57,965 nucleotides of DNA from Oscillospiraceae bacterium (lineage in GTDB: Bacteria; Bacillota; Clostridia; Oscillospirales; Acutalibacteraceae). Positions within the stretch are counted from its first letter, which is position 1; each line of letters starts with the position of its first letter. Below are positions 28,151 through 57,965 of this stretch, piece by piece. Position numbers and translations under genes: made by a program. The notes beneath the pieces are model-generated. The model worked only from the letters and a program-made list of their open reading frames with translations. It ran no database searches and was not told the DNA's origin. The stretch lies in assembly GCA_902789095.1 (NCBI GenBank), contig CADAMY010000001.1:1-57965 (forward strand), written 5' to 3'.

Positions 28151-29797
28151 TCAACCGAATATTTTTTTGTACCAAGGTACTTTTTCTTCTTCGACTATTT
28201 CACTTTCGGGAACTGTATCTTCAAAGCCCTTTGAAATACTCGGAGTCATATAAATAAATGCAACGTTAGTGCTTGCAGACGAAGAAGCATCGGTAAATAT
28301 TTTATATCCTTTGCCTACTTCAAGCCATGCTTCGCTGAGCGCTACAAACTCATCTGTATCGTCAACAACAATACCGTAATCCGCAAGATTAAGGTCAGAA
28401 TTTGCGAGTATTCTTGAAATATTGGTGATCGCGTCAACATTTTTGTCAGACATCATTGAGCCGAGGGAATTGATAAGTCCTCTGTTCTTTTCGATTTCGC
28501 TCTGAAGCTCGTTGATGGTCTTTACCGTTTCGTCAAGATTGTCAAGCGATCTCTGAATTTCCGGATCATTCATAAGCGCTGAGAGCTGATTTATAACAGG
28601 CTGAGCTTTCTGCAGATCGTCGGCTATTTCACCGATATTCATAAGACTCTTCAAAAATTCGGAATTTGTAACAGTTGCTATTGAATTTTTAAGACGGTCA
28701 TCATTAAGATCGTCAAGCAGCTTTTTAAGGGTATTGATGTTCTCAGTCGTAAGAGTTGTTGTAAGAGCGTTCAGAAGCTTCTGATTGCTGTCGTATACTT
28801 TAACAGCGTTATTTATAACGCCCGAAAGCTCGTTGATGTTTGCACTGTTTGATGTAAGCGTATTCATCATCTGATTGATATCGATGCTGTTGAGCGTATT
28901 CATAAGGCTTTTAAGAACCTTGAGTGCGCTCTGAAGACTATCGACCTGACCGGAAGCGTCAAAGTCAAAGTCAAGAGATGCTATCGGAATAGCGGCAAAA
29001 TAGATGTTTTCCATTTCAAATGATGACGTTTTTGTTGTAACGCTGGCTGTATTGGTAAGTTCAATATTGCCGAAGCCCTTAAGATCGTTTGATGAAATAT
29101 TAAGACTTTCACTAACACCGGGAAGACTGTGAATCATAACAAGTTCGTTTGTACCGTCGCCGATAGCGCGTCCGTTTTTGACCTTGACAGCCGAAAAAGT
29201 TTTTTCAGGCAGAACAAGACCGCCAAGCATAAGAACCGGAAGATACATCTTCTTTGTCTGACCGCTGACCTTTACAGCTTTTGAATAATTGTTTTTGAAA
29301 GTAAATTCAATCCTTACTTCTCCTGCCTGACCTGCAATGTCCTCTGCAGACATTTCAGCGCCGTTGAGGAAATATCTTATTCCGATTTCAACAGGAAGCT
29401 TTTTATTGGTAGGAGCCGTATAATAAAGATCGGTGGAATCCAGATTCCAAAGAATTTCTTTATTGTCATTCTGATTCGATATAGGCATAGAGTCGCCTTT
29501 TACGTTCTGGATTTTATCAAGTTCAAGATCAGTTCTGTCATATACTCTGACGTTGGGCACATCGGTATGAAGCCAGTCTGTAACGGTTTCCTGAGTTACT
29601 TGACCTTTACTGTTTAAGTTAACATAAACTGTTTCGGTTTTAGTAACGTTTTCTGCGGTTTTATCGTATAAAACAGTCTGTCCGTTATCCTTTACGGGCT
29701 CCTCTGTTTCTTTCTGAGCGCAACCGGCAAATCCTGCGGCAAGGCTCAGACAAAGGCATAAAGAAACAGCAGACTTAGCGATTTTAGAAGCTTTCAT
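28151..29797 (-). other. Possible internal translation start of a lipoprotein within the MMPL ORF
   Basis: AAGGGGAG SD 8 nt upstream of an in-frame ATG at 29797, followed by MKASKIAKSAVSLCLCLSLAAGFAGC (lipobox LAAGFAGC). Confidence 0.4.
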
Positions 29798-31948
29798 TTT
29801 TTTATCTCCCCTTTTTTTATCAGAAGGCTTTCTCCATCCGATCGATGTTTTGTTGATTACTCCTTCAAAGCACAAAAGAACAGGTGTAAGGAAGCAGATT
29901 ATTACTACTGCGCTGATTATAGCGCCTCTTGCAAGCAGTACGCACATTCCTTTTACAAGCTCGAGACTGCACACAAATATTACTCCCAGTGTTGACAGGC
30001 AGAAAATCAATGCGCTTTGGAAAATGGATTTACTTGCGGCTTTTGCGGCTATCGACATAGCTTCATGCTTTTCATGACCGCGCTGCAGCTCTTCCTTGAA
30101 TCTGCAGGAAAGAAGTATTGCGTAGTCAACAGTTGCTCCGAGCTGAACACAGCTTATAACGATCGGCGAAATAAAGCATATCTCGGTGCCCATAATTGTT
30201 GAAAGAGAAATGTTTATGAAAATTGCAAGCTCGATTGAAGCAACGAGCAGAAGCGGCAGGAAACCCGACTGCAAAACAAAAGCGATCAGAATAAAAATAG
30301 CGGAAATACTGACAATGCTTGTCCTCTGGAAATCGGCGTTTGCTATATCGACAAGTTCGTCATAAAGTATATTTTCGCCCGAAATACAGCCCTTCGGATC
30401 ATAGGATTTAATAATTGTATTAAGTTCGGTTTTTTGTTTGGTGAGCAGATTTTCCCCTTCGGAATTTCTCGAGCCGAGATCATATTCCGACATCAGCGCC
30501 ATAAGTCTGTATCCGCCTTTTTCGCATATGCTTTTTATCGAATCCGGCAGTATGTTTTCGCTTATTCCTGCGCCGACAAATTTATTGAGCGCGATAACGT
30601 TTGTAACACCGCCGACGTTTTCAAATTCACCGATCATAGATGAAACTTCGCCGGAAGGAATCGAATCACTGACAATTACAAAGTGGATCGACGCCATATT
30701 GAATTTTTCCTGCATTTTAACAGTTGCAATTCTCGAATCGCAGTCGTCAGGCATCTTTCCGTTGAGGTCAGTATAAGTTGAAACGTTTGCCTGAAGAATA
30801 TACATCGGAATAAACAGCAGGAAGAATATCGCTGTCATAACCTTTTTATGTTTAATTACAAAATCAACTAATTTGTCAAATTTCGGAACAAATCGTTTAT
30901 GTTCATGAGCAAAAATCACTTTATAGAATTTCAAAAGAAACGCCGGCATAATTATCAGAACGGAAGCCAGACCGAAAATAATACCTTTTGCCATTATCAG
31001 TCCCATTTCAAGACCTAAAGTAAGGCTCATGAAGCAAAGTGAAATAAACCCGAAAAACGTTGTTGATGCTCCGCCTATAAGTGAATTGAACGAATAGGCG
31101 ATACTTTTTGCCATTGCTTTTCTGACGTTTGAGGTCTTTGTGCATTCCTCTTCAAATCTGTCAAGCAAAATGATCGAGTAATCAATCGTTACCGCAAGCT
31201 GAAGAATGGCGGCGATACTCTGCGTAAGATATGAAATATCGCCAAAGAAGAAATTGGTTCCCATATTATAAATTACCGCGCATCCAAGCGTTAAAAGAAC
31301 AACTCCGGGAATGAGCCACTGCTTCGTCGCAAGTGTCAGAACAAGATAAGCAAGTCCTATCGCAACGGCAATATAAATATACATTTCCTGATTGATAAGC
31401 GCTTTAGTATCGCTCATAACTGCAGAAAGACCGAAAACAAAACAATGCTCTTTATCAAGAACTTCTTTAACGGCGTTGACTTTAGCAATGGAATCGTAAG
31501 TTCCGCCGTCGTCATGGTCGTACTGTATGAGCATAAGAGTAGCTTTTTCATCGGCGGAATAAAGCATCTCTTTTACAGCGTCGGGATACATCGACTGAGG
31601 TATGCTGATATCCGCAACAGAGCCCGCCCAGATACATTGCTCAACGCCCTCAACGTCAAGAATCTTATCCCGCAGTCTGTTGATCTGCTTAGGGCTTAAA
31701 TCCTCAATAACAACGAATGAAGTTGATGAAGCGTCAAAAACGTTGTCAATAACTTCATTGAGTCCGAAAATTGCGTTAGTTTCGTTAATATCGGCGCTCG
31801 CTTCTTTCTGTTCCGGCAAAAGCGACAGAATATCGTAATTAACTCCGGTACAGAAATAACCCACTGCGCTCGGAATTACAAGAGCAGCAGCAATTATAAG
31901 TATTAAAGAAGGATGCTTAACAACCCATTTTGATAATTTTTTTATCAT
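28151..31948 (-). CDS. MMPL/RND-superfamily transporter fused in frame to a lipoprotein-like coiled-coil domain
   Basis: Start set to the ATG at 31948 (GAGGTGG RBS). Two 6-TM bundles with MMPL-type motifs (AILQLAVTIDYSIILL; VQLGATVDYAILL). From residue ~718 of this model, counted from 31948 (726 of the 1273-aa track ORF that starts at 31972), a complete lipoprotein signal appears, followed by ~520 aa with heptad-like L/N/S repeats. Confidence 0.8.
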   Translation of the reverse strand: MIKKLSKWVVKHPSLILIIAAALVIPSAVGYFCTGVNYDILSLLPEQKEASADINETNAIFGLNEVIDNVFDASSTSFVVIEDLSPKQINRLRDKILDVEGVEQCIWAGSVADISIPQSMYPDAVKEMLYSADEKATLMLIQYDHDDGGTYDSIAKVNAVKEVLDKEHCFVFGLSAVMSDTKALINQEMYIYIAVAIGLAYLVLTLATKQWLIPGVVLLTLGCAVIYNMGTNFFFGDISYLTQSIAAILQLAVTIDYSIILLDRFEEECTKTSNVRKAMAKSIAYSFNSLIGGASTTFFGFISLCFMSLTLGLEMGLIMAKGIIFGLASVLIIMPAFLLKFYKVIFAHEHKRFVPKFDKLVDFVIKHKKVMTAIFFLLFIPMYILQANVSTYTDLNGKMPDDCDSRIATVKMQEKFNMASIHFVIVSDSIPSGEVSSMIGEFENVGGVTNVIALNKFVGAGISENILPDSIKSICEKGGYRLMALMSEYDLGSRNSEGENLLTKQKTELNTIIKSYDPKGCISGENILYDELVDIANADFQRTSIVSISAIFILIAFVLQSGFLPLLLVASIELAIFINISLSTIMGTEICFISPIVISCVQLGATVDYAILLSCRFKEELQRGHEKHEAMSIAAKAASKSIFQSALIFCLSTLGVIFVCSLELVKGMCVLLARGAIISAVVIICFLTPVLLCFEGVINKTSIGWRKPSDKKRGDKKMKASKIAKSAVSLCLCLSLAAGFAGCAQKETEEPVKDNGQTVLYDKTAENVTKTETVYVNLNSKGQVTQETVTDWLHTDVPNVRVYDRTDLELDKIQNVKGDSMPISNQNDNKEILWNLDSTDLYYTAPTNKKLPVEIGIRYFLNGAEMSAEDIAGQAGEVRIEFTFKNNYSKAVKVSGQTKKMYLPVLMLGGLVLPEKTFSAVKVKNGRAIGDGTNELVMIHSLPGVSESLNISSNDLKGFGNIELTNTASVTTKTSSFEMENIYFAAIPIASLDFDFDASGQVDSLQSALKVLKSLMNTLNSIDINQMMNTLTSNSANINELSGVINNAVKVYDSNQKLLNALTTTLTTENINTLKKLLDDLNDDRLKNSIATVTNSEFLKSLMNIGEIADDLQKAQPVINQLSALMNDPEIQRSLDNLDETVKTINELQSEIEKNRGLINSLGSMMSDKNVDAITNISRILANSDLNLADYGIVVDDTDEFVALSEAWLEVGKGYKIFTDASSSASTNVAFIYMTPSISKGFEDTVPESEIVEEEKVPWYKKIFG

Positions 31949-32018
31949 AGTCCACCTCATAAGTATGATCAACGCTTATTATATCATAAACTGATATAAA
32001 AGTAAATCGAAATAATTA

Positions 32019-32468
32019 TTAAGATTTACTGAAAATTCTGTTAATTACGGCAATTAAAAATCCGAAAAGAATTATTCCGAAAAATATACCGCAAAAATCA
32101 ATATATACATCATAAATTCTGCAGGCGCGTTCCGGAACGAAAAACTGATGGATTTCATCGCTTACACTGTAAACGAATGAAAAATAACCGCCGGCAATCC
32201 CGGCTGATCTTATTCCGGAAAACGTAAATCCGCTTGTGAAACAAAACCCGAGTGCGCAGTATTCGGTGAAATGCGCAAACTTGCGGAACATATTGTGTGA
32301 AATAAAATCAAAGCCGGTCAGTCTTAAAAATAATTCGTAAAATCCTGTGCTTCTCGCTGCTGATTCCTCACCGCTCTGATAAGACAGCAGAAAAATCATA
32401 ATCATAATAAAGACACAGAAAATAAAAGAAACTATGCTCAGCGGCAGATTCTTTTTTGTTTTCATCAT
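32019..32468 (-). CDS. VanZ family membrane protein
   Basis: 4 TM, ~149 aa. KFAHFTEYCALGF motif. Confidence 0.7.
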   Translation of the reverse strand: MMKTKKNLPLSIVSFIFCVFIMIMIFLLSYQSGEESAARSTGFYELFLRLTGFDFISHNMFRKFAHFTEYCALGFCFTSGFTFSGIRSAGIAGGYFSFVYSVSDEIHQFFVPERACRIYDVYIDFCGIFFGIILFGFLIAVINRIFSKS

Positions 32469-34093
32469 TTGATTCCTCTCAGAGTAAAATCAATAACTCT
32501 GTTGTTTTCACTGCAGAAAACGCCTTCAAGCTCATTCAGATAGCCGAAGCTCGTTTTTGCTTTGTATACAGGATAAAAAACACCGTTTGAAATAAGAGTA
32601 TTTTCAGCTTCGATCATTTTTTTATAATAAGAATCGCCTGAAGCATTTTTTACGCAGTAATCAATGATATCCTGATAATCTTTATCAGAGTAGCTCCAGA
32701 TGTTTCTGTCGTTTTCTTCACAGAAATACTTTAAGAAAACCAGAGGATCAGAGCTGTCAGCTTCAATGAAGTTAAAAGCGATCTGATAAGATTTATCGGA
32801 AAGCGTTTTATCAAGATCTTCCTTTGATACTGCTGATGCGCTGACACTCATTGAAAGACCGAATATCTTTTCCCAGTTCTGCAGAATTCTGATCACATCG
32901 GTACGGTACTCTTCAGGGCATACAACGCTCAAAGAAATATTGACGCTGTCAAGTTCTTCAAGCGCTTTTTCATAGTATTCAACAGCTTTATTTTTATCAG
33001 GCTTCGGGACAATAGCAGTTCCGGCCGTTTCTCTGAATGATTTATCGCCGAATCTGCAGGAATCGGGAATTATACCTCCGGCAATATTATTTTCTGATGT
33101 GCCAAGAACACTCAGATCTGTTGCCGTTACAAGAGCTTTTCTTAAATTATCATTAGAAATCAGCGGATCGGCGCAGTTAAAAGAGAACCCGTAGGTGCGG
33201 TTATAAATATCAAAGAATGAACTTTCTTTATTATTTTCAACTTTTGACAGTCCGGAATCTGTCAAAGATACAACATTATAATCGCCCTGCCTGAATTTTG
33301 ATAGATACAGATCCTCGTCAGTATTTATATAAAGGTAAATCGCATTTGTTTTTACGGCAGCGTCCCCTTTATATACTTCGCTTTTAAAAAGGGTCAGCGA
33401 GCTGTCGGAAGCCCATTTGCCGATGTAGAACGGACCGTTGAATAAAGTATATTTCAGTTCAAGACCGTATTTTGCTTTTGTCGCTTCAAAAAATTCACGG
33501 CAGCACGGCATACACATTGGCATAGTAAGTATTCTTAAAAAGTCATCGTTTTTTCTGTTTAGAGTGATTTTAATTGTATAATCGTCAACTGCCTGGACTC
33601 CCAGTTTCTTTTCATTAAGCTGCCCGGCATTCAGCTTTTCGGCTCCGTTAATACAGTAAAGAAGATATGCGTATTCAGCTTTTGTTTCAGCTCTGAGTGC
33701 GCGGGTTATTCCGAATACAAAATCGTCTGCTTTGACTCTGTTGTCAAAAGTTTCAAGGCAGTCCTCACCGAGAAAAACCTTATGCGCTTTGAGCATCTGC
33801 CATTTTGCGTCCTGCCTTAAATTAAAAGTATATGTCATTCCGTCATCGGAAACGCTCCAGCTTTCTGCTGCTCCCGGCTGAATCTTTCCGTCGCCGTCAA
33901 GCCTTACCAGGCCTTCCATACAGTTTTTAGCAACAATTAAGGCAGTGTCGTTTTCCGCGATCTGCGGGTCAACGCATTCGGGGTCAGCGGAAATCGGATA
34001 TATTATATTCAATTCTTCATCGTGTGAACACGCTGAAAATGTAAGCGCGGCAATCACAACGCATAACAGAATACTAACTATTTTTTTGATCAT
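32465..34093 (-). CDS. ABC transporter substrate-binding lipoprotein, family 5 (peptide/nickel type), orphan
   Basis: Lipobox LTFSAC. SBP_bac_5-like length and layout. No permease or ATPase genes adjacent. Confidence 0.75.
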   Translation of the reverse strand: MIKKIVSILLCVVIAALTFSACSHDEELNIIYPISADPECVDPQIAENDTALIVAKNCMEGLVRLDGDGKIQPGAAESWSVSDDGMTYTFNLRQDAKWQMLKAHKVFLGEDCLETFDNRVKADDFVFGITRALRAETKAEYAYLLYCINGAEKLNAGQLNEKKLGVQAVDDYTIKITLNRKNDDFLRILTMPMCMPCCREFFEATKAKYGLELKYTLFNGPFYIGKWASDSSLTLFKSEVYKGDAAVKTNAIYLYINTDEDLYLSKFRQGDYNVVSLTDSGLSKVENNKESSFFDIYNRTYGFSFNCADPLISNDNLRKALVTATDLSVLGTSENNIAGGIIPDSCRFGDKSFRETAGTAIVPKPDKNKAVEYYEKALEELDSVNISLSVVCPEEYRTDVIRILQNWEKIFGLSMSVSASAVSKEDLDKTLSDKSYQIAFNFIEADSSDPLVFLKYFCEENDRNIWSYSDKDYQDIIDYCVKNASGDSYYKKMIEAENTLISNGVFYPVYKAKTSFGYLNELEGVFCSENNRVIDFTLRGIK

Positions 34094-38510: not shown

Positions 38511-40058
38511 ATGAGTAATTTAAATTTTCCGTCAGTTAAAGAGCTTCTTTCAGCCCAATCAGAACGATTGGGCAATAAGACTTTTTTAAAATACATCAGG
38601 AACGGCGAAATCTGCGAGAAGTCATTTAACACGGTTTACAGCGATACTCTTTCGTTCTGCAGAATGATCAGGCATAAATTCGGCAAAAAGACTAACATTG
38701 CGCTTATTGGTCAGACGGGATATGAATATATAATCAGCCTTCTCGGCATTCTTACGAGCGGATGCTCTGTTGTCCCCTTTTCACCTGAAATCAACGTTGC
38801 CGAAATCAAAGAGCTCTTTGATGACGCGGACATTGAAGCTGTTGTTTTTGATTCAAATTTTGCAAAGAAAGCAGAAATATTAAAGGCTGCTTGTCCGTCA
38901 GTCAAACTTTTTCTGAATGTCAGCCGTTCAGATGATTTTAAGGATATAATGAGAATATATTCCGAATCTTCTAAATATTCATCCTTGTCTGATCAGGACG
39001 TTGATAAAGACGAATGCGCCGCAATTATTTATACTTCGGGCACTACGGGAATCAGAAAAGGCGTTATGCTTTCGACCAATTCGCTCGTCGGAAATATTAT
39101 GTATAAAGACTTCTGCACTGATATTTTCCGTGAGAATGACGTTATAATGTCTGTTCTGCCGATGTATCATATTTACTGCTTTACAGGCGATATTATCAAG
39201 AATCTTAAAGACGGACTGCAGGTATGTTTAAACGGCAGTATGCGCGAGATTACAAAAAACCTTAAAATTTTTAAGCCCCGCATCATGAGAGTCGTGCCTA
39301 TGATTGCCGAAACTCTGCTTCGCAGAATGAAATTATACAGAGCTAAGCATCCGGACTTTTCTTATGAAGAAGCGGCTCATCACGTTTTCGGCGAAAATAT
39401 AAAGTATTTGATTTCAGGAGGAGCATATCTTAATTCCGCCCTTGTTGATGAATATGCAAAGTACGGTATTTTACTTCGCCAGGGATACGGTATGACGGAA
39501 GCTGGATGCAGAATTTCAGTTCCCGACGAAGGCGTTGATCCCTCATCAGTCGGCAGAATCATTGATATTTGCGAAGTCAGGACTCAGGACGATGAAATCC
39601 AGGTCAAAACTCCTACGAGAATGATCGGATATTACAATATGCCTGAAGAAACCGAGAAGATTTTTACTCCCGACGGATGGCTTAAAACCGGAGATCTGGG
39701 ATACGTTACTGAAGATCGGCAGCTATTTATTACCGGCAGAGTTAAAAATCTTATAATTCTTTCAAGCGGAGAAAATGTCTCGCCCGAAGCGATTGAGAAA
39801 AAATTTGCCGGATGCGAAATCATTAAAGAAGTAATGGTTTATGCTGAAAATAATATGATTGCCGCAGAGTTTTATCCTGACTATGAATATGCTCAAAATC
39901 ACGGAATTCAAGATATAAACAGCAGAATCGGGGAAATCACCGACGCATTGAACTCTAAAGCTAAATCATCGCATTTCATTTCAAAAATTATAATCAGACA
40001 AATTCCTTTTGAAAAAACAGGAAGCGGTAAAATTAAAAGGAAGGAAAATACAATCTGA
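38511..40058 (+). CDS. ANL-superfamily acyl-AMP/acyl-CoA ligase (fatty-acid ligase-like)
   Basis: IYTSGTTGIRKGVMLS, GYGMTE, TGDLGY, GKIKRKE. Confidence 0.85.
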   Translation: MSNLNFPSVKELLSAQSERLGNKTFLKYIRNGEICEKSFNTVYSDTLSFCRMIRHKFGKKTNIALIGQTGYEYIISLLGILTSGCSVVPFSPEINVAEIKELFDDADIEAVVFDSNFAKKAEILKAACPSVKLFLNVSRSDDFKDIMRIYSESSKYSSLSDQDVDKDECAAIIYTSGTTGIRKGVMLSTNSLVGNIMYKDFCTDIFRENDVIMSVLPMYHIYCFTGDIIKNLKDGLQVCLNGSMREITKNLKIFKPRIMRVVPMIAETLLRRMKLYRAKHPDFSYEEAAHHVFGENIKYLISGGAYLNSALVDEYAKYGILLRQGYGMTEAGCRISVPDEGVDPSSVGRIIDICEVRTQDDEIQVKTPTRMIGYYNMPEETEKIFTPDGWLKTGDLGYVTEDRQLFITGRVKNLIILSSGENVSPEAIEKKFAGCEIIKEVMVYAENNMIAAEFYPDYEYAQNHGIQDINSRIGEITDALNSKAKSSHFISKIIIRQIPFEKTGSGKIKRKENTI

Positions 40059-40077
40059 TAATAGAAGGAGATTTATT

Positions 40078-41463
40078 ATGAAAAAGATTGATTCACAGGT
40101 TTATGATCTTATCCCACCGCAGGAAATGATTCAGTTTATGCTGAAATATAGTTTTTTTCATAAGCAGGTCACTCAGATTCCCGAATCCATAATTGTTGAC
40201 AAAAAGATTGATTTTGATATTATGACGAAAGCTCTTAATATCGTGATCGAACGAAATGACTGTATGCGACTTCGTTTTTTTAAAAAAAGCGGAAAAATCA
40301 AGCAGTATTTTCTTGATAAATTTGAAGTTAATAACATTCCTGTTCTTCATTTTTCTTCAGTTGATGAACAAATGAAGGTGCTTACTGCCGACGCTCAGAC
40401 TCCTATAAAAGTTTTTAAAGACGAAACGTTCAGAATTAAATTTTTCACGACTTCCGACAACAGATACGGCATTTATCTTTGCGTTCATCATCTTGTTATG
40501 GATAATGCGGCCTGCCTTGTATTTTTTAACGATTTACTGGCAATTTATGATCATCTTAAAGACGGCAAACCGATGCCAAAGCCTCTCGGTAAATATGAAG
40601 ACAGGATCATAAAAGAGCTTGAGTATATCAGCGATAAATCAAACCTTGAAAAAGAAGAAAAAGCTTATACAGAATATATAACCAAAAACGGAGATCCGAT
40701 GTATCTCGGCGTTGAAGGTCCGAAATTCCTTGAAGCGGAAAGAAAGAAAAAGAAGGATCCAACGATTATGGCTCCTTCGCTTTTTGATCCGATTCACGAT
40801 AAGGCTGAGTTTACCAAAAAAGCTCTGCCTGAAGAAGAAGGAAAAAAAGTTATTGAATTTATGGATAAATACGGCGTCAGCGGCGAATGTCTGATTCAGC
40901 TTGCGATGAGACTGTATCTTTCAAAAATAAACGGCGGATATCTTGATACATATTTTATCACACTTTGCCCGAGAAGAAGGACGTTATCCGAAAAACGTTC
41001 AGGCGGAACGGTTACAGCTCCCCTGCCGTGGCGTCTTACTCTTAAAGAAGATACTACTTTTATGCAGGCTCTTGAGCAGATGGCGGAAATTCAGGTTTGG
41101 GCGTTCAGACATATGAATTATCCTTACCTTGAATACCGTGAGCTTCAGAGAAAGTTATTCAATTATCCTGCGGCGGCGGGATCTTCGACTATGATGTTTT
41201 CATGGTTCCCGCTTGAAGAGAACACGATGAACAACTGGAACTATGAGTTTGTCGGTTACGGAATCGGAAGATACGTTATGGTGCTTTATACCTTCGCAAT
41301 GAAGGATGTTAAACATAATACGATCAAAATCACATATCAGCACAGAACTAAGTTTGTAAGCGTTGAGGATATTGATAAGTTCCATGCCGGAACAGAGAAA
41401 GTTCTGAAAATTTGTGTTGAAAACCCGGATCTGACTGTAAAACAGATCCTTGAAAAGATATGA
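40078..41463 (+). CDS. Free-standing NRPS-type condensation (C) domain protein
   Basis: Start set to the ATG at 40078 (GAAGGAG RBS). HHxxxD active-site motif as VHHLVMDNAA. About 461 aa, the size of one C domain. Confidence 0.75.
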   Translation: MKKIDSQVYDLIPPQEMIQFMLKYSFFHKQVTQIPESIIVDKKIDFDIMTKALNIVIERNDCMRLRFFKKSGKIKQYFLDKFEVNNIPVLHFSSVDEQMKVLTADAQTPIKVFKDETFRIKFFTTSDNRYGIYLCVHHLVMDNAACLVFFNDLLAIYDHLKDGKPMPKPLGKYEDRIIKELEYISDKSNLEKEEKAYTEYITKNGDPMYLGVEGPKFLEAERKKKKDPTIMAPSLFDPIHDKAEFTKKALPEEEGKKVIEFMDKYGVSGECLIQLAMRLYLSKINGGYLDTYFITLCPRRRTLSEKRSGGTVTAPLPWRLTLKEDTTFMQALEQMAEIQVWAFRHMNYPYLEYRELQRKLFNYPAAAGSSTMMFSWFPLEENTMNNWNYEFVGYGIGRYVMVLYTFAMKDVKHNTIKITYQHRTKFVSVEDIDKFHAGTEKVLKICVENPDLTVKQILEKI

Positions 41464-52264: not shown

Positions 52265-53524
52265 TTAATTCTGATTCTCTCTTGCTACGGCAAGCATCAG
52301 CTTTATTCTGTTTTCCTGATTTACTTTTGTTGCGCCCGGGTCGTAGTCAATAGAAACTATATTTGCGTTCGGAGCTGCTTCCTTGACTTTTCTTACCATT
52401 CCTTTGCCTGAAATATGATTCGGCAGACAGCCGAAAGGCTGAGTGCAGATAATATTTTCATATCCGTGATGAGCAAGCTCGAGCATTTCTGCGGTAAGGA
52501 ACCAGCCCTCGCCCATTTTGCATCCGAATCCGATTACCGGCTCGCATAAGTCTCTTACATCGTCGTGATACATAGGAGCCGTAAAATCACTGTTCTGTTC
52601 AACTGCTTCTATAAGTATTTTTTCAATGGTTTTGATATATGACTTAACAAGGTCGTATGCTTTAAGCTCTATATATGAGCCGCCGTAAAGCTTGTAATCC
52701 TGTCTTGTGTCTTCAATACAGTAAAGCAGGAAACCCATAAGTCCGGGGACCATAACTTCACAGCCCTGGGAAACAAGAAATTCTTCAAGATCGTTATTTG
52801 CAAGCGGAGAATATTTTACGAATATCTCCCCTACCACGCCTACTTTAACTGCGTCGAATCTTTTGATCGGTATATTTGCAAACGAAAGAACTATTTCTTT
52901 CATCTTCTTTTTCATAGCGCCGTTAGTAAGGCTTCTGTTCTTTTCAAAATCGTCGCAGAGTTCATTTACCCATTTGTCAAGCAGGGCTCTGCTGTCGCCT
53001 TTATTTATCTCATATGTTCTTACCTGCTCATCAAGAAGCATTAAAAGATCACCGTATGAAACAGCGCCGAGAGCTTTAGGAATCATATCAAGAGTCAGCT
53101 TGAATCCGCTGTTTTTTTCAAGCCCGGCAACGTTTAAAGAAATGATCGGAATATGACCGTAACCTGCTTTTATAAAAGCTTTTCTCATAAGATTAAGATA
53201 ATTTGATGCACGGCAGCCGCCGCCTGTCTGAGTGATAAGGACGGCTACTTTATTAAGATCATACTTGCCGCTGTCAAGAGCGTTGATGAACTGACCTATA
53301 ACGAGAAGTGCGGGATAGCAGGTGTCGTTATGAACGTATTTCAGTCCTGCGTCAACAACAGCTCTGCCGGAATTCGTAAGATGCTCAAGTTTATAACCCG
53401 CCTGTCCGAAAATTTTGCACAGGAATTTAAAGTGAACGGGAAGCATGTCCGGTACAAGAATCGTATGAGTTTTTTTCATTTCGGGAGTAAATTCCACTCT
53501 GTGAATTATATGTTTTTCATCCAT
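52265..53524 (-). CDS. 2-hydroxyacyl-CoA dehydratase-family / activase-related (DUF2229-like) protein
   Basis: THTILVPDMLPVHF..., GLKYVHNDTCYPALLVIGQ and QTGGGCRASNY resemble the C-terminal modules of clostridial CoA-enzyme activase proteins. Confidence 0.65.
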   Translation of the reverse strand: MDEKHIIHRVEFTPEMKKTHTILVPDMLPVHFKFLCKIFGQAGYKLEHLTNSGRAVVDAGLKYVHNDTCYPALLVIGQFINALDSGKYDLNKVAVLITQTGGGCRASNYLNLMRKAFIKAGYGHIPIISLNVAGLEKNSGFKLTLDMIPKALGAVSYGDLLMLLDEQVRTYEINKGDSRALLDKWVNELCDDFEKNRSLTNGAMKKKMKEIVLSFANIPIKRFDAVKVGVVGEIFVKYSPLANNDLEEFLVSQGCEVMVPGLMGFLLYCIEDTRQDYKLYGGSYIELKAYDLVKSYIKTIEKILIEAVEQNSDFTAPMYHDDVRDLCEPVIGFGCKMGEGWFLTAEMLELAHHGYENIICTQPFGCLPNHISGKGMVRKVKEAAPNANIVSIDYDPGATKVNQENRIKLMLAVARENQN

Positions 53525-53525
53525 T

Positions 53526-54164
53526 TTATTTATCCTCCTTTACGCTTTTCTGCATATCCAGAGCCGAGAAAAGACTGCGAAGTCTGATTTTAACTGCGCC
53601 GAGATTTGATACTTCATCAATTTTAATCTGAGTGTAAATTTTACCGTGGCTCTCAAGAATTGAACGAACTTCGTCAGTTGTAATAGCGTCAACACCGCAG
53701 CCGAAAGATACCATCTGAACAAGATTCATTTCAGGGTGATCAACTACATAAGAAGCGGCTGAGTAAAGTCTTGCGTGGTAAGTCCATTGATTAAGTACGT
53801 TTACCTTGATTTTATCTGCAAGGTGACATATTGAATCTTCAGAAATTACAACTGCTCCGCAATCGCAAATAAGCTGATCGATACCGTGATTGATTTCAGG
53901 GTCAAGGTGGTAAGGTCTGCCGCACAGAACAATTATAGGGATATCGTCCTTATGAGCTGTGTCAATATAGTCCGCCGCTTTTTTGCGAATAGAATCAAGA
54001 TATGAATTATATCCTTTATACGCTTTATCGACTGCGATTAAAAATTCATTTTTCTGAATATCCGGGAAATATTTGAGCATCGTCTGGTAAAACTTCTTTT
54101 CAAAAGCCTTTCTGTCTCCGTTTTTTGCATCGTTAACTATATTGATAAGGTCACTTTTCTTCAT
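53526..54164 (-). CDS. Activase-related / HgdB-like protein, apparently 5'-truncated
   Basis: IPIIVLCGRPYHLDPEINHG...SFGCGVDA match the C-terminal half of the module. The usual N-terminal ~120 aa (GIPRAL.. region) is absent. 1-nt gap to the next gene. Confidence 0.55.
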   Translation of the reverse strand: MKKSDLINIVNDAKNGDRKAFEKKFYQTMLKYFPDIQKNEFLIAVDKAYKGYNSYLDSIRKKAADYIDTAHKDDIPIIVLCGRPYHLDPEINHGIDQLICDCGAVVISEDSICHLADKIKVNVLNQWTYHARLYSAASYVVDHPEMNLVQMVSFGCGVDAITTDEVRSILESHGKIYTQIKIDEVSNLGAVKIRLRSLFSALDMQKSVKEDK

Positions 54165-54297
54165 TCAGGATTCCTTCTTTCGTTAAAATATCTCCGATCT
54201 TTTTCTTAGCCGCATTTTTTTCTTCCTCCGACAGTGCGGCTTCAGCCTGCATCATTGCAAGCACCTGTCGGATCACCTCATCTAACTGATATTCCAT
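54151..54297 (-). CDS. Possible 48-aa helical micro-protein (weak)
   Basis: ATG ORF MEYQLDEVIRQVLAMMQAEAALSEEEKNAAKKKIGDILTKEGILNEEK overlaps the next start by 14 nt. The only SD (AGGAGG) is 14 nt upstream and lies at the predicted transcription start. Confidence 0.2.
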   Translation of the reverse strand: MEYQLDEVIRQVLAMMQAEAALSEEEKNAAKKKIGDILTKEGILNEEK

Positions 54298-54319
54298 ATC
54301 AAAGTTTCATTCCTCCTGT

Positions 54320-54348
54320 ATTATACCACTTTTTCATCCGTTTGTCAT
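54320..54348 (-). promoter_or_regulatory. Sigma-A-type promoter of the dehydratase-like operon
   Basis: Minus strand reads ATGACA, 17-nt spacer, TGGTATAAT (extended -10). Confidence 0.5.
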
Positions 54349-54459
54349 CTGCTTTCTGAAAATTAGACGTAGTAAGTTGGGTTTGGTTATAAACTTTTTT
54401 CTCCGTCTGTTTTTCTGTTTTCTGATAGTTAGACGAAGCAAGTTCGGTTTGGTTATAAA
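54337..54459. repeat. Two tandem copies of a 57-58-bp unit (period 65-66 bp, ~80% identity)
   Basis: TCCGT(T/C)TGT...CTG(C/T)TTTCTGA(A/T)A(A/G)TTAGACG(T/A)AG(T/C)AAGTT(G/C)GGTTTGGTTATAAA, aligned by hand. Copy 1 overlaps the -35 element. Confidence 0.8.
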
Positions 54460-54530
54460 AAATTTTCAGCAGATTTTAAATATCAACTCACCTGACACCC
54501 TTTACGTAAATCACAGAGTGACAAAGATTT

Positions 54531-54561
54531 GACCCCATATCCTTAGAATGGATATGGGGTC
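54531..54561 (-). terminator. Hairpin downstream of the GyrI-like gene
   Basis: Perfect 12-bp stem GACCCCATATCC/GGATATGGGGTC with 7-nt loop. The U-tract is weak. Confidence 0.5.
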
Positions 54562-54602
54562 ATTAAACAAGCTTGCACTGATATTATCGATCAAAAAGCG
54601 TT

Positions 54603-55064
54603 TTACAGAGAATTATAGTTTGTTCCTATATATACTTCAAAAACACAGTCAGAACCAAATGTATCACCGTTTCTGATCACTACATAATAAGCGTTTGTTA
54701 TAGGCTCAAAATTATTTTTCCGTATATATTCTTTTAGGGCTGCTTCTGTTCTGGAAATATCCGATATACTGCCCTCATGCCTTGTCATCACAGCATTTAT
54801 CAAGCGGAAGATAAGCTTTGAACCGTAGTTCTCCGAAGGCTTTATCTCGCCCTTTACAGGTATATATATCTCAGCGGACTGTGTTTCATCGGAGATGTTG
54901 TTTTCCTTGAATGTAAATATAAATTTACCCGCTGCTGCAAGCCCCAGCGCCGAAAGATTATCATGGATATGCTCTATCACTTTCAGTATATCCGCCTTTT
55001 TTATGTTTGCGGAATAGGTTATAAGATTTTCAGCATATATATTTAAATGTGGTATATATTGCAA
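54603..55064 (-). CDS. GyrI-like / effector-binding-domain small protein
   Basis: About 153 aa. I prefer the TTG at 55064 (AGGTGGGG 8 nt upstream) over the GTG at 55073. The alternating beta/alpha pattern and size are typical of GyrI-like (SbmC / BmrR C-terminal) domains. Family call is tentative. Confidence 0.55.
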   Translation of the reverse strand: MQYIPHLNIYAENLITYSANIKKADILKVIEHIHDNLSALGLAAAGKFIFTFKENNISDETQSAEIYIPVKGEIKPSENYGSKLIFRLINAVMTRHEGSISDISRTEAALKEYIRKNNFEPITNAYYVVIRNGDTFGSDCVFEVYIGTNYNSL

Positions 55065-55134
55065 TTGTTTCACCCCACCTGTATCTAATTGAAATTTAGC
55101 TATTATAAAGCTGCTAATATTTCTTCTTGTAGAT

Positions 55135-55206
55135 ATTATATCATTAAATATATGATGCTGTCTACGATAATCGAGTGAACGGTATAAAAATTTAAGTGAA
55201 CGGTAT
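55135..55206 (-). promoter_or_regulatory. LytTR-type direct-repeat box plus extended -10
   Basis: Minus strand reads ATACCGTTCACT, 9 nt, ATACCGTTCACT (plus-strand 55195-55206 and 55174-55185; 21-bp period), then 33 nt, then TGATATAAT (55135-55143). The core ACCGTTCAC fits the LytTR consensus [TA][AC][CA]GTTN[AG][TG] at all but the last position. Confidence 0.6.
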
Positions 55207-56505
55207 CTATATCTCTTCCGATCTCAGCACCAGATTGAGATCCAGTGTAAACTGCTTATCGTCCGCCGACAGATCAGCCTCACCGTCATATTTTTGGACA
55301 ACGCGAAGGATATTCGATACACCGAAACCGTGGTGATCCTTATCGCTTTTTGAAGTTGCTATTGTCTTGTTGCTTTTTATTTCCACTGTCTCAAAGATAG
55401 GATTGGTAATAGTAAAGAAGAAATAGCCTTGCTTGAAATCCGCATTAACTTTTATCTCCTTCGGCTTCTCTGAGGTATCCTTGCCGCAGGCTTCGATGGC
55501 ATTGTCTATGGCGTTTGCCATTATTATACACAGGTCAACATTGCTTATTCCTGCGGTGGGCACCATGCCTGAAAAAACTATCTTTGTGTTTACCGTTGCT
55601 GCTCTGTCGTTTTTATCATTCATAAGAGCATCAATAATTATATTGCCTGTATTGTACTGCTTTTTCTCAACAGATGAAAGCGCTTCTATATCGTCTATAT
55701 ATTCCATCGCCTTATTTTTTTCTTCTGCATCAATCAGACTTCTGAGACAGATCAAATGATTTTTAAAATCATGACGGAAGCTTCTGAATTCACCGTAAAT
55801 GGTATTTATCTTTTCATAGTACTTTATCTCGTTTTCCACCTGTTTTGAAAGCATATCGATCGTTGTCCTTTTCTCGGCTTCGGATATACTTATCTTTATT
55901 ATTGAAACTGCAAATACTATCAGTCCCGCCATGGAAGGCAGTATATATCTTTTGTAATACAGCTCATGGTCGGGTTGGTTTTCTCCCATGACGAATATCG
56001 CCGCTATAAATAAAAGCAATATTACATCTATATAAAGCTTTTTAGGCAAAGATCTGACGATCTGCCGAAGCATGATCTCGATTTTTTTTCTTTTTATGTA
56101 AATGAGTATCGATGCCAGAACAATTACCTCTGCAGAAAATGCAGCAAGATTACAAAGCTCATAATTTTTGATAAATGCCATACTAAGATTCAAACATATC
56201 TGCGGCGGCCATAGCGACAGCAGGAAAATATACAGTACTCTCTTGCTGAATTCCTCAAATAACACACTGTATGCCCCTAAACGTCCGAAAAAATAAATGC
56301 CTTGTAACAGCTGGCTCAATTCCTTAGGACAGAAATCAGGTTTGTTCATGATTATAGGTGCAGGAAGCAGAGTGAGTATCAGCAGAAAATAACCTACATT
56401 TCTGATACGTGATGATTTGAAATCACATACCGTTCTTGCAAGCTTTACAAAAATAAGCTGTTCCAGGATATTTACAAGCAGCACCAGATAAGAAATTATC
56501 GTCAT
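55207..56505 (-). CDS. AgrC/ComD-class (HPK10-like) membrane sensor histidine kinase
   Basis: About 6 N-terminal TM segments. H-box FRHDFKNHL. C-terminal GHKL ATPase. Start set to the ATG at 56505 (AAGGAG 8 nt upstream). Confidence 0.85.
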   Translation of the reverse strand: MTIISYLVLLVNILEQLIFVKLARTVCDFKSSRIRNVGYFLLILTLLPAPIIMNKPDFCPKELSQLLQGIYFFGRLGAYSVLFEEFSKRVLYIFLLSLWPPQICLNLSMAFIKNYELCNLAAFSAEVIVLASILIYIKRKKIEIMLRQIVRSLPKKLYIDVILLLFIAAIFVMGENQPDHELYYKRYILPSMAGLIVFAVSIIKISISEAEKRTTIDMLSKQVENEIKYYEKINTIYGEFRSFRHDFKNHLICLRSLIDAEEKNKAMEYIDDIEALSSVEKKQYNTGNIIIDALMNDKNDRAATVNTKIVFSGMVPTAGISNVDLCIIMANAIDNAIEACGKDTSEKPKEIKVNADFKQGYFFFTITNPIFETVEIKSNKTIATSKSDKDHHGFGVSNILRVVQKYDGEADLSADDKQFTLDLNLVLRSEEI

Positions 56506-56507
56506 TT

Positions 56508-57221
56508 TCAGCACTCCTTCCGGAAATTATATCTCTTGATATAGCCGGTAAAAGCTTTTTTAAACGGAGTGAGCTTTAATCTGCTTATAAGTGCTCTTTC
56601 TTTATTATCAAAAAGGATATCAGTAGATGTATGAGAAACGATATGTCTGAATCCTGCCAGATATGTCCTGTGACAGCGGAAGAATTTATCCTCGGGAAGC
56701 ATATTTTCAATTTCCGATAATGTCTTCTTGTAAAGGACAGTACCCTCATTCGTCCTGATATTGCAGTACTTATCAGCTGCTTCTATATAAATGATATCAT
56801 TGATATTCAGCTTTTTATTCTCCTCATCGGTCTTTATGAGAAGGAAATTTGATTCGTCATTATCTGCAAGATATGAATCAAGCGCAGATGCCAGCTTATC
56901 GTCATCTATCGGCTTTACTAAGAACCTGTATGCATTGACTTCAAAGGTATCAAAAACAATATCGGGAAAGCTGGTCAGGAATATTATAGCTGTTTCGGTA
57001 TTTTTCTTTCTGATCTGCCTTGCGGTCTCAAGACCGTCAATCTCCGCCATCTGATAATCCATAAAAATAATGTCATACTCATTCTGACTGCCGATAAGAT
57101 CTAATCCGTTGGTAAAATCATTGTAGATCATTATAAGATTTCTTTTCTGTGCATAACTTTCAAGATGTTTTTTCAGTTCGGTGTGTATGACCATCTGGTC
57201 GTCACAAATCGCGATTTTCAT
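56508..57221 (-). CDS. LytTR-family response regulator
   Basis: REC domain (MKIAICDDQ..., DIIFMDYQM). C-terminal LytTR domain (FFRCHRTYLAGFRHI). Confidence 0.9.
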   Translation of the reverse strand: MKIAICDDQMVIHTELKKHLESYAQKRNLIMIYNDFTNGLDLIGSQNEYDIIFMDYQMAEIDGLETARQIRKKNTETAIIFLTSFPDIVFDTFEVNAYRFLVKPIDDDKLASALDSYLADNDESNFLLIKTDEENKKLNINDIIYIEAADKYCNIRTNEGTVLYKKTLSEIENMLPEDKFFRCHRTYLAGFRHIVSHTSTDILFDNKERALISRLKLTPFKKAFTGYIKRYNFRKEC

Positions 57222-57383
57222 GTGGTTCTCCTCTCCTTAACTACAAATATATTTTTCGATTTTAAACGACATCAGGAATTGCATTTTGAGAACTGGCAAA
57301 AGCTCTGTATATACTTTTACGCAGTTCGCAAATAAGCAATTTCAATGTCGTTTACTATACGATTCTACACAAAGTACAGATCA

Positions 57384-57454
57384 ATGCATTTTACTCCGTA
57401 TTTTATACCATTTACTCCAAAAATATATCGCAACTGCAAAAAGTATATTATAAT
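57384..57454 (+). promoter_or_regulatory. Second, degenerate LytTR-type box plus -10, divergent from the response regulator gene
   Basis: ATGCATTTTACT (57384-57395; 8/12 to the perfect box) and ATACCATTTACT (57405-57416; 10/12), 21 bp apart. 32 nt downstream is TATAAT (57449-57454). Confidence 0.5.
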
Positions 57455-57516
57455 AAGACCATCGAAACAAGAGAAACAACAAAACTAAAAAAAAGAACAA
57501 AAAAGGAGGCTTAAAA

Positions 57517-57555
57517 ATGCAGGACTGGTTTGATTTTTGGGGTTGGTTCTTATAA
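57517..57555 (+). CDS. 12-codon micro-ORF encoding MQDWFDFWGWFL
   Basis: AAGGAGG (57503-57509), 7-nt spacer, ATG. Stop is TAA. Lies between the LytTR-box promoter and a strong terminator. Confidence 0.35.
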   Translation: MQDWFDFWGWFL

Positions 57556-57666
57556 TTAATAAGTGTTAAAAAAACAGAGTAAACTTTAAAATTATAATCC
57601 AATTCATTATATCATAAATTAGTTGTTATGTCAATTACATAACCAAAAAGAGTTTATGATAAAAAG

Positions 57667-57718
57667 AGCTTACCGCAGGTTTTGTCTTACAAGACAGGAT
57701 CTGCGGTAAGCTTTTTTC
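57667..57718 (+). terminator. Rho-independent terminator of the micro-ORF transcript (also usable on the minus strand)
   Basis: 12-bp stem AGCTTACCGCAG/CTGCGGTAAGCT with an inner TGTCTT/AAGACA stem, followed by T6. Confidence 0.7.
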
Positions 57719-57790
57719 AGATATGATATTGTAAAAATATGACTAACCCTTTACGCGCTGTTTAGTCCGGTATATCCGCGGAATAACCAT

Positions 57791-57835
57791 AAAAAAGCAA
57801 TGCCCCCGAAGTGTTTTAAAACGCTTCGGGGGCAT
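57791..57835 (-). terminator. Terminator for a gene entering from the right window edge
   Basis: 12-bp stem ATGCCCCCGAAG/CTTCGGGGGCAT with T-runs on both strands. Confidence 0.55.
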
Positions 57836-57965
57836 CATTTTTAACGTGTATTTTTTTAAGGGTAGTTTTTTTCAACTGACTAAATCACTTCAATACAGTG
57901 TTTACCATCTGGGTTTATAATTCTTGAAAGTAGGAATATTGTTATCTCCGTTTCTTTCATCACCG

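Follow-up and report, generated by a model that had tools for sequence, protein, structure and literature searches.

Background

Systems such as agr, ComCDE, BlpRH/BlpC and PlnABCD couple a peptide pheromone to a membrane histidine kinase of the HPK10 type and a LytTR-domain response regulator, and direct repeats with a 21-bp period, placed before a promoter that lacks a -35 element, are the hallmark of the autoinduced promoters of the AgrA, ComE and PlnC type. Many of the AgrC/LytTR pairs of the Clostridia are 'orphans' without a known signal. Here we examine a 57,965-nucleotide stretch of DNA from an Oscillospiraceae bacterium (contig CADAMY010000001.1, assembly GCA_902789095.1; hereafter 'the window'), in which an unannotated 12-codon micro-open reading frame (micro-ORF) stands beside the genes of an AgrC/ComD-type histidine kinase (HK) and its LytTR response regulator (RR).

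Recent reviews of signalling in the rumen deal only with autoinducer-2 and with generic counts of agr genes, and peptide signalling in the main rumen fibre degraders, Ruminococcus albus and Ruminococcus flavefaciens, as well as in the Ruminococcus of the human gut, is essentially uncharacterised. A micro-ORF of this kind is too small for any annotation pipeline. A preliminary description of the window, drawn from its sequence, regarded the arrangement as undescribed, and we likewise found no published description, although the literature was searched mostly without subscription journals and this is hence weak evidence.

We gathered homologues of the kinase and fetched 80 loci from species-representative genomes; L numbers below denote related loci. 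The preliminary description had left three options for the unit, namely an unprocessed hydrophobic signal sensed by the kinase, a membrane-active effector, or a functional RNA. The comparative data favour the first, through covariation of the peptide with the kinase sensor and through synonymous-only change in the micro-ORF, and we consider it probable, though well short of certain, that the micro-ORF encodes a leaderless autoinducing peptide sensed by the AgrC-like kinase. The covariation is the main reason for favouring a signal; together with a conserved architecture and purifying selection on the peptide, it emerges from comparison in silico.

Results

The peptide transcription unit

The elements listed in the preliminary description, from the two boxes 21 bp apart to the strong terminator, are all present in the window, with small corrections to their coordinates:

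57384-57395, plus strand: box 1, ATGCATTTTACT, matching ATACCGTTCACT at 8 of 12 positions
57405-57416, plus strand: box 2, ATACCATTTACT, matching ATACCGTTCACT at 10 of 12 positions
57389-57397 and 57410-57418, plus strand: LytTR-type direct repeat cores (9 bp, 21-bp period), TTTTACTCC and ATTTACTCC
57449-57454, plus strand: -10 hexamer TATAAT of the peptide promoter, without a -35 element (ATATCG in its place)
57505-57509, plus strand: Shine-Dalgarno (SD) sequence GGAGG, 7 nt 5' of the ATG
57517-57555, plus strand: micro-ORF of 12 codons and a stop, product MQDWFDFWGWFL, the proposed leaderless pheromone
57625-57643: 7-bp hairpin
57667..57718, plus strand: intrinsic terminator of the peptide transcript (stem 57667-57712, 20 bp, and a T-run; free energy -34.8 kcal/mol)

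The repeat pair (57384..57418) is the predicted binding site of the adjoining response regulator, and the TATAAT follows 31 nt past the end of the second repeat core. Transcription is predicted to start near 57461 and to yield an RNA of ~258 nt (about 57461 to 57718), in which an A-rich leader, between the -10 hexamer and the SD sequence, precedes the Trp-rich peptide. The site at 57449-57454 is missing from the sigma-70 -35/-10 hits of a promoter scan, which fits dependence on an activator. By its sequence the terminator should work on the minus strand too, where it lies upstream of the promoter that we assign below to the RR/HK operon.

Within the 58-kb window the exact pattern TTYACT-N15-TTYACT occurs at two sites only, in the 57384 region and in the 55174 region. 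Strict box pairs number 45 in 1.69 Mb of related loci, both strands counted, and nearly all of them stand before a micro-ORF or a DUF5085 gene. Because the exact pattern is confined to these two sites, the strict pairs are rare and well placed and the distance from box to TATAAT is fixed, a chance origin of the unit can, judged from the sequences, be excluded for practical purposes.

A motif, CA(N)CGAAAC(R)(R)(A)AAC, is found at 57461-57480, shortly past the -10 hexamer and the predicted start. It recurs in ~20 loci and spans clades whose leaders are otherwise unalignable. It could form part of the start-site context, contribute to stability or serve as a signal in the RR/HK leader that runs antisense.

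Conservation in related loci

Ruminococcus, Oscillospiraceae and Lachnospiraceae together supply about 45 related loci with the same unit, their RR identities to the window ranging from 100% down to ~35%. Relatives of the micro-ORF, of 7-24 codons and rich in W, F, G and D, are thereby known from over 40 species of the rumen and gut. Where the RR is at least 55% identical, nearly every locus has a micro-ORF with an SD sequence in front of it, 145-430 nt upstream of the RR gene and on the other strand, and the micro-ORF is present also in a further clade at 35-45% RR identity. Each locus has a strong SD sequence before it. The repeat consensus [GA]TT[TC]ACTC, occurring twice with a 21-bp period, is conserved across loci and the pair fronts the micro-ORF in ~36 promoters; in essentially every locus a TATAAT lies 31 nt past the second repeat with no -35 element, and the ATG follows 70-117 nt past the boxes. 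Terminators (free energy at or below -13 kcal/mol) are found 3' of the micro-ORF in ~20 loci.

Outside R. albus the 3' untranslated region (3' UTR) of the micro-ORF is unconserved, and several loci have their terminator only 0-16 nt past the stop codon. A LytTR-box-driven, peptide-coding mini-gene, as first proposed, looks real on the strength of its conserved architecture and of the coding selection described below.

The named genomes nearest to the window locus are those of R. albus KH2T6 and AR67, and the window RR is 100% identical to proteins in GCA_000526775.1, in GCA_000586615.1 and in many rumen metagenomes. Six near-identical loci (99%) differ in the ORF by one synonymous change, TTC>TTT, and are uninformative. 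Collinearity of the window with the other R. albus loci (99% identity) is confined to the part from 54096 to the right. Left of this point those loci carry a gene for a 679-residue protein with a sigma-70 domain, in place of which the window has, at 52265-54164, two ORFs of the DUF2229 (CoA-activase-like) kind. In the junction (54096-54460) there are two imperfect direct repeats of ~65 bp at 54340-54460 and a 48-residue ORF (54151-54297) that overlaps a DUF2229 ORF. From its sequence it looks like a strain-specific rearrangement at the edge of the module.

Complete units, with boxes, -10 hexamer, SD sequence, ORF and terminator, also occur in tandem, two or three times, in L034 (3600-4250), L019 (3740-4030), L022 (3970-4290) and L025, all encoding MGGFWDFIFGR. 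The RR-proximal copy of L022 is apparently decayed (ATG>TTG, W>L, D>N), and the two copies of L025 differ in the last residue.

The peptides and the selection acting on them

The related loci encode 35 distinct peptides of 7-24 residues (median 11-12), composed to 16% of Trp, 15% of Phe and 12% of Gly. An acidic residue is present in 30 of the 35 and Cys in none; there is no conserved Ser, the net charge is 0 to -2 and many of the peptides carry FG or GxxG motifs. ORFs of seven codons occur (MFGWWDW, MWDWLFG and MWEWWFK). The range is illustrated by the following examples:

MQYWFDLWGWNF, MLEWFDWWLW, MLDWFDWWGW, MFGWWDW, MWEWWFK
MTWSTIIDFLFG, MWDWLFG, MGGFWDFIFGR, MGDFLDWLFGGRK, MWDWIFGIFG
MDLWGWLFG, MFDFIKIIFG, MWREIMDILNKIFG, MWQYIWQIIFG

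In size the peptides match the mature autoinducing peptides (AIPs) of agr, the XIP signals and the short hydrophobic peptides (SHPs). A doubled copy of the peptide, searched against NCBIfam, matched no peptide family. The 'MGG' that opens MGGFWDFIFGR would be too short to act as the leader of a C39 substrate.

Pairs of ORFs that encode the same peptide differ almost entirely by synonymous (S) rather than nonsynonymous (N) changes: 2S:0N between the window and L012, 2S:0N between the copies of L034, 3S:0N, a stop-codon change included, between L010 and L011, and 5S:1N between L015 and L031. The 60-nt flanks of these pairs are only 53-87% identical. Between pairs with different peptides the changes are mostly nonsynonymous (L012/L007, 1S:6N; L036/L038, 2S:7N; L008/L009, 0S:4N). 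Such an alternation of purifying and diversifying change is seen in agrD and comC. Within a peptide type, these in silico comparisons point to purifying selection on the peptide.

Covariation of the peptide with the kinase sensor

The two-component genes of the window are:

56508..57221, minus strand: RR, with a receiver domain (PF00072, 1.1e-17) and a LytTR domain (PF04397, 7.9e-21)
55207..56514, minus strand: AgrC/ComD-type HK, with SPOB_a and HATPase_c_5 (PF14501, 3.3e-23)

The kinase had been described as having six transmembrane segments, and its N-terminal ~205 residues do contain hydrophobic segments, though they may be counted as six or seven; this part is a hypervariable sensor and the C-terminal part is the catalytic half. 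Against the NCBIfam AgrC equivalog the HK scores 29 bits where the cut-off is 500, so we regard it as a kinase of the same type as AgrC and not as its orthologue. Among the relatives, compared with the window, the N-terminal membrane domain diverges much faster than either the catalytic half or the RR.

Partial Mantel tests were made on the pairwise distances of 30 loci; the sequences are related and the peptides short, and the p-values are consequently approximate. Peptide distance is correlated with the distance of the HK sensor when the RR is controlled for (r=0.43, p=2e-4) and when the HK catalytic half is controlled for (r=0.28, p=2e-4), and the correlation persists with DUF5085 controlled for as well. 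Given the sensor, the peptide is not significantly correlated with the catalytic half (r=0.06) or with the RR (r=-0.10).

The clearest case, seen at the level of DNA, is the pair L036 (MLDFIINFFR) and L038 (MFDFIKIIFG). Over the boxes and all of the RR gene the two are 97-100% identical (the RR proteins are 100% identical), in the catalytic half of the HK they are 96% identical, and they fall to 51-63% in the sensor and to 49-78% at the peptide gene. Two separate variable islands thus flank the conserved RR, and a single recombination tract cannot explain them. Conversely, L010 and L011, which share MFGWWDW, are 78% identical in the sensor, 79% in the catalytic half and 80% in the RR. Such covariation is, as read from these sequences, the signature expected of a ligand-receptor pair under pherotype diversification.

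A probable convergent promoter for the receptor operon

One further feature alters the geometry of the locus:

57606..57634, minus strand: consensus sigma-70 promoter, TTGACA-17-TGnTATAAT (12/12 match plus TG; transcription start predicted near 57598)

This promoter lies 3' of the micro-ORF and faces the RR gene, and is the probable promoter of the RR/HK operon. Its -35 element is overlapped by the 7-bp hairpin at 57625-57643, which is present as previously described but has to be seen together with this element. A counterpart (at least 11/12, usually with the TG) stands within 260 nt beyond the RR-proximal micro-ORF in 18 of 30 loci, where 3.2% would be expected, and within 700 nt on the RR strand ~27 of 31 loci have no sigma-70-like promoter better than the one beyond the micro-ORF, or no other at all. 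A promoter between the RR start and the boxes was considered and none was found in most loci; L008 has ~40 nt between the RR ATG and the boxes, which leaves no room there for another RR/HK promoter.

The RR/HK mRNA is accordingly predicted to begin near 57598, with a leader of ~377 nt that would be antisense to the micro-ORF, its SD sequence, its promoter and the boxes, and that overlaps the predicted peptide transcript by ~137 nt. The preliminary description had compared the locus with the divergent agr P2/P3 promoters, a comparison that these data do not support: since the probable RR/HK promoter lies beyond the micro-ORF and points back at it, the predicted geometry is convergent and overlapping. 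Exceptions are L036/L038, L032, L037 and L025, and the distal tandem copies of L034, L019 and L022 lie outside the overlap, so the overlap is frequent for the peptide gene and not required. Basal expression of the peptide should be held down where a strong constitutive promoter is directed across one that is weak and activator-dependent. Once the peptide gene is induced, collisions and pairing of the RNAs could in turn affect the level of the receptor.

Two regulatory roles for the peptide mRNA were considered and rejected. It is not expected to free the ribosome-binding site of the RR, whose leader shows no pairing between the complement of the peptide SD sequence and the SD sequence of the RR, and leader-peptide attenuation of a downstream gene was rejected for R. 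albus, where a strong terminator ends the transcript and the gene that comes next is read from the opposite strand.

DUF5085 and other box-driven genes

The preliminary description did not report that DUF5085 is a conserved box-driven partner of the micro-ORF, or that the same boxes stand before genes of secreted cell-wall hydrolases. In the window the second box-driven gene comprises:

55174-55185 and 55195-55206, minus strand: two perfect repeats, AGTGAACGGTAT / ATACCGTTCACT, with a 21-bp period, abutting the HK stop codon
55164..55135, minus strand: promoter of the DUF5085 gene, TAGACA-18-TGnTATAAT, following the perfect repeats
54603..55073, minus strand: DUF5085/GyrI-like cytoplasmic protein of 156 residues (PF16895, 31.4 bits, cut-off 30)
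54562..54530, minus strand: terminator of the DUF5085 gene

Hidden Markov model searches find DUF5085 in 32 loci; 14 of 26 relatives match Pfam DUF5085 (best 7e-11) and 7 of 26 match GyrI-like. In most related loci box pairs precede the DUF5085 gene, and in a distant clade (L070, L048-50, L059) this gene lies 14-60 nt past the micro-ORF. Against PDB sequences DUF5085 gave non-significant matches only, the best relevant one being the GyrI-like domain of EcmrR (E=0.16).

Across peptide switches, in which the HK sensor changes, DUF5085 remains 89-93% identical, and with control for the sensor its divergence shows no correlation with that of the peptide (r=-0.03). A role as a specific receptor of the peptide was rejected on this ground. 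Any binding of the peptide by DUF5085 would have to be without sequence specificity; otherwise the protein would be a plain output of the system.

Beyond DUF5085, the genes that are box-driven or adjacent differ from locus to locus. L013 (R. flavefaciens 007c) has a box-driven secreted Glucosaminidase; a secreted protein is encoded in L010 and a 66-residue membrane protein in L039 and L041. In the MGGFWDFIFGR group an aminotransferase gene, then ABC_tran and FtsX genes (BceAB-like), lie downstream. At the end of the window a minus-strand gene for a 339-residue protein with B_lectin and Peptidase_M15_3 domains runs off the sequence (57743-57965, with the stop near 57880; 8130-9319 in L001), next to a bidirectional terminator at 57800-57835. 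Its upstream region, seen in L001, contains ACCATTCACTCC, a weaker box 21 bp on and a TATACT exactly 31 nt further on, and this cell-wall hydrolase gene is probably a member of the regulon in R. albus. R. albus makes a lectin-like bacteriocin, albusin B, and the B_lectin/Peptidase_M15_3 protein may be the same protein.

The R. albus 7 plasmid pRUMAL03 (L087, NC_014826.1; 5800-6060 and 9036-9152) carries the whole module with a gene for MQDWFDWWGW, and a second, orphan box-driven micro-ORF, MWLWPWLP, that has no kinase of its own. The latter lies ~480 nt upstream of two genes for huazacin-family RiPPs (ribosomally synthesised and post-translationally modified peptides), two radical-SAM genes and an ABC transporter. 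RefSeq annotates neither micro-ORF. By analogy, the accessory genes resemble the antagonism and immunity regulons under quorum-sensing control in the Blp and Pln systems.

Beyond the window, R. albus genomes contain a second pair of a LytTR RR (37% identical) and a GHKL kinase, situated ~7 kb downstream of the module (17471-20714 in L001). The gene next to the pair is of the radical-SAM kind; other strains have an ABC gene there. This may be another peptide-signalling or RiPP locus.

Discussion

A model for the module and its alternatives

We propose a self-inducing module of four parts: the LytTR RR, the AgrC-like polytopic HK, the micro-ORF and the DUF5085 gene. The micro-ORF would be translated into a 12-residue, aromatic-rich peptide that has no leader and no Cys, and for which there is no dedicated gene of processing or export. 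Possibly still N-formylated, this peptide would leave the cell by a housekeeping transporter or by partitioning directly through the membrane, and would bind the membrane sensor domain of the HK. The phosphorylated RR would then bind the two 9-bp direct repeats and activate the -35-less promoters of the micro-ORF, giving positive feedback, and of DUF5085, and in R. albus probably that of the B_lectin/Peptidase_M15 gene too. The RR/HK operon would be transcribed from the strong constitutive promoter that faces the micro-ORF from beyond it, giving mRNAs complementary over ~137 nt, and through transcriptional interference or antisense pairing the convergent promoters may set a threshold or produce switch-like behaviour.

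Several considerations weigh against a signal. The Mantel p-values carry the approximation noted above. No signal sequence, leader or conserved exporter was found: the only gene families common to many of 38 related loci are HK, RR and DUF5085, and ABC genes or ATPases occur in 11 of the 38 and not in the window. Covariation fits an extracellular ligand and a modulator within the producer's own membrane alike and cannot distinguish them. Peptide arrays of two or three tandem copies (L034, L019) and the orphan MWLWPWLP are more typical of effectors such as the phenol-soluble modulins (PSMs). Lastly, DUF5085, the sole conserved co-regulated gene, comes from a family known only for cytoplasmic immunity proteins, a hint that the peptide may act inside the cell or as a toxin.

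These points define the rival explanations. The peptide could be a cell-autonomous feedback modulator of the HK, induced by the RR and entering the producer's membrane from the cytoplasmic side with no action between cells, in the manner of MgrB and SafA on PhoQ. The missing export and processing genes, the marked hydrophobicity and aromatic content of the peptide, its induction by the same RR, its covariation with the transmembrane domain of the HK and the co-induction of DUF5085, a cytoplasmic binder of hydrophobic ligands, would all suit such a modulator. We nevertheless think it unlikely, because the abrupt, mosaic change of peptide and sensor in near-identical loci (L036/L038) is that of social pherotypes, as in agr and comC, and why a private feedback loop should diversify in this way is not obvious; peptides of 7-12 residues are, moreover, too short to span the membrane as the known small-protein modulators of kinases do, and a positive-feedback promoter with tandem amplification of the gene suits the production of a signal. 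A membrane-active effector or toxin, that is, a very small PSM or a leaderless bacteriocin, with DUF5085 as its cytoplasmic immunity protein or chaperone and with the HK sensing another cue, or sensing the toxin only in order to induce immunity, has a slightly smaller chance still of being correct. TipE and ExiB act in the producer's cytoplasm to neutralise toxins with a hydrophobic glycine zipper, DUF5085 is box-driven in most loci and in the distant clade closely follows the micro-ORF, and the multi-copy arrays, the BceAB-like genes of the MGGFWDFIFGR group and the FG or GxxG motifs all accord with an effector; yet peptides as short as seven residues that are neutral or anionic are unlike the known membrane-lytic peptides, DUF5085 does not follow the peptide once the sensor is accounted for and stays nearly constant across the switches, and the window holds no type VII secretion system (T7SS), LXG or WXG genes.

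The RNA itself could be the functional product, an RNAIII-like regulator or an antisense partner of the RR/HK leader, with the ORF incidental or secondary. The predicted overlap of the peptide transcript with that leader in ~27 of 31 loci would allow this, and for the 206-nt body of the RNA the predicted fold is modestly better than those of shuffled sequence (z=-2.69). Against it stand the synonymous-only change within peptide types, the strong SD sequence found everywhere and the retention of the ORF where the RR leader is not overlapped (the distal copies of L034, L019 and L022, and L036, L038 and L032). No special fold is apparent in the RR leader (z=-0.97) and there is no Rfam match, a search of 54000-57965 at E<=1 returning nothing but a chance match to a plant miRNA. 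With the unconserved 3' UTR and the terminators close behind the stop codon, these findings speak against the RNAIII-like reading offered in the preliminary description, and a functional RNA is, in our estimate, very improbable.

A broader proposal, to which we give slightly less than even weight, is that the module represents an unrecognised and widespread class of quorum sensing in rumen and human-gut Ruminococcus and their relatives, in which a pheromone would be translated at its final size (7-14 residues) without leader, modification or dedicated exporter, be sensed by an AgrC-like kinase with agr-like pherotypes, and be encoded antisense within the 5' leader of its receptor operon as a built-in convergent-promoter switch, with DUF5085 acting as a cytoplasmic buffer or guard.

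Significance

The module offers a concrete candidate signal for orphan AgrC/LytTR pairs across a clade. If the proposal is correct, a membrane kinase would be served by a ribosomal peptide without leader, protease or dedicated exporter, and the micro-ORFs would rank among the smallest functional genes and their products among the smallest gene-encoded bacterial signals. The nesting of a signal gene antisense in the leader of its receptor would be a new natural case of the convergent-promoter switch. The pherotypes provide ready specificity groups for the study of competition between strains, alongside the box-driven hydrolases and the sactipeptide cluster beside one copy, and as peptides of 7-14 unmodified residues can be purchased, testing would be cheap.

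Other observations in the window

Three further loci of the window deserve mention. At 20711-21423 two adjoining ORFs, of 116 and 121 residues, match the C-terminal and then the N-terminal half of a TauE/SafE sulfite exporter, in swapped order, and may be a split or permuted transporter gene. At 38511-41463 an AMP-binding enzyme (515 residues) is followed by a stand-alone Condensation-domain protein (484 residues); this is a minimal pair of the nonribosomal peptide synthetase (NRPS) kind, with no other NRPS modules nearby. An orphan SBP_bac_5 protein (family 5, OppA-like; 32465-34093) has no adjacent permease or ATPase genes and adjoins VanZ and a 1273-residue MMPL-family transporter (28151-31972); nothing ties it to the peptide module.

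Comparison with described systems

One of the closest known systems is agr, with which the module shares a polytopic, AgrC-type HPK10 kinase with HATPase_c_5, a LytTR RR, paired repeats of 21-bp period at an autoinduced promoter beside the receptor operon, and a hypervariable signal and sensor that switch together into specificity groups. Sites of the agr type have a spacer of about 12 bp between repeats; here the LytTR domain and the conserved 21-bp-period repeats are present and binding is predicted from them. As the preliminary description had stated, and as Pfam searches of all large ORFs agree, the window holds no AgrB, ABC exporter, C39 peptidase or Rgg/RRNPP receptor, and AgrB is also missing from the families common to the 38 related loci. 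Where agr has an AgrD-type propeptide of about 40-50 residues, the ORFs here have 7-24 codons, and with Cys in none of the 35 peptides and no conserved Ser a (thio)lactone ring is impossible. The peptide gene lies outside the receptor operon, antisense within its leader, the two variable islands are split by the conserved RR gene and not contiguous, and there is no conserved RNA effector.

The ComCDE, BlpRH/BlpC and PlnABCD systems likewise have a linear, unmodified peptide pheromone, an HPK10 kinase, a LytTR RR, autoinduction through direct repeats, regulons of antagonism and immunity, and diversified pherotypes, and kinase, regulator and direct-repeat promoter of this type are all present here in silico. 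Their pheromones, however, carry a double-glycine (GG) leader of 15-25 residues and are cut and exported by a C39-peptidase ABC transporter, whereas the ORFs here lack a leader. Neither ABC_tran nor Peptidase_C39 was found by Pfam among the large ORFs of the window, and the ABC genes of some other loci (ABC_tran and FtsX, or ABC_membrane and ABC_tran) are without C39.

Signals of the SHP/Rgg and ComS(XIP)/ComR systems come from tiny unannotated genes and are hydrophobic, aromatic peptides with an acidic residue; type II XIP carries a D-W-W motif that may be compared with the peptides here. These systems too have no dedicated exporter, SHP and XIP leaving by the housekeeping transporter PptAB, and show positive feedback and a peptide gene beside that of the receptor, often convergent or overlapping. 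They differ in that their receptors are cytoplasmic RRNPP proteins reached by Opp import and not a membrane kinase, and in that precursors of 17-35 residues are cut to 7-9, whereas the gene here encodes the final size. The neighbours of the micro-ORF are the RR and HK, and no Rgg/RRNPP receptor was found among the large ORFs of the window. PSMs share direct LytTR control (by AgrA), leaderless translation without processing and tandem copies; they are, however, formylated peptides that form amphipathic helices of 20-44 residues that act as toxins or surfactants, are exported by Pmt and are not kinase ligands, in contrast to peptides of 7-14 residues that covary with a sensor, and the window has no Pmt-like ABC genes. 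The prgQ/prgX switch of the Enterococcus plasmid pCF10 is a pheromone response with two facing promoters and overlapping, complementary transcripts; PrgX is an RRNPP repressor, whereas here a peptide mRNA would overlap the 5' leader of a two-component operon, with the regulatory effect that we infer above.

DUF5085 brings in a further comparison. TipE of Streptococcus gallolyticus and ExiA/ExiB of Staphylococcus aureus are cytoplasmic GyrI-like DUF5085 immunity proteins that bind the hydrophobic glycine-zipper part of membrane-depolarising T7SS toxins (PMC10434224, PMC12744356). The product of 54603-55073 is likewise a small cytoplasmic DUF5085/GyrI-like protein, of a family that binds hydrophobic peptide segments. 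The known members stand in T7SSb/LXG toxin loci against large glycine-zipper toxins; the present one belongs to a two-component module, where it is a target of LytTR boxes, and has no T7SS genes near it (no LXG, WXG100 or EssC domains in the window) and no covariation with the micro-peptide. Since the module fails the defining tests of the agr and GG-pheromone systems, we place it in no named family and regard it as a new form of peptide/HPK10/LytTR quorum sensing.

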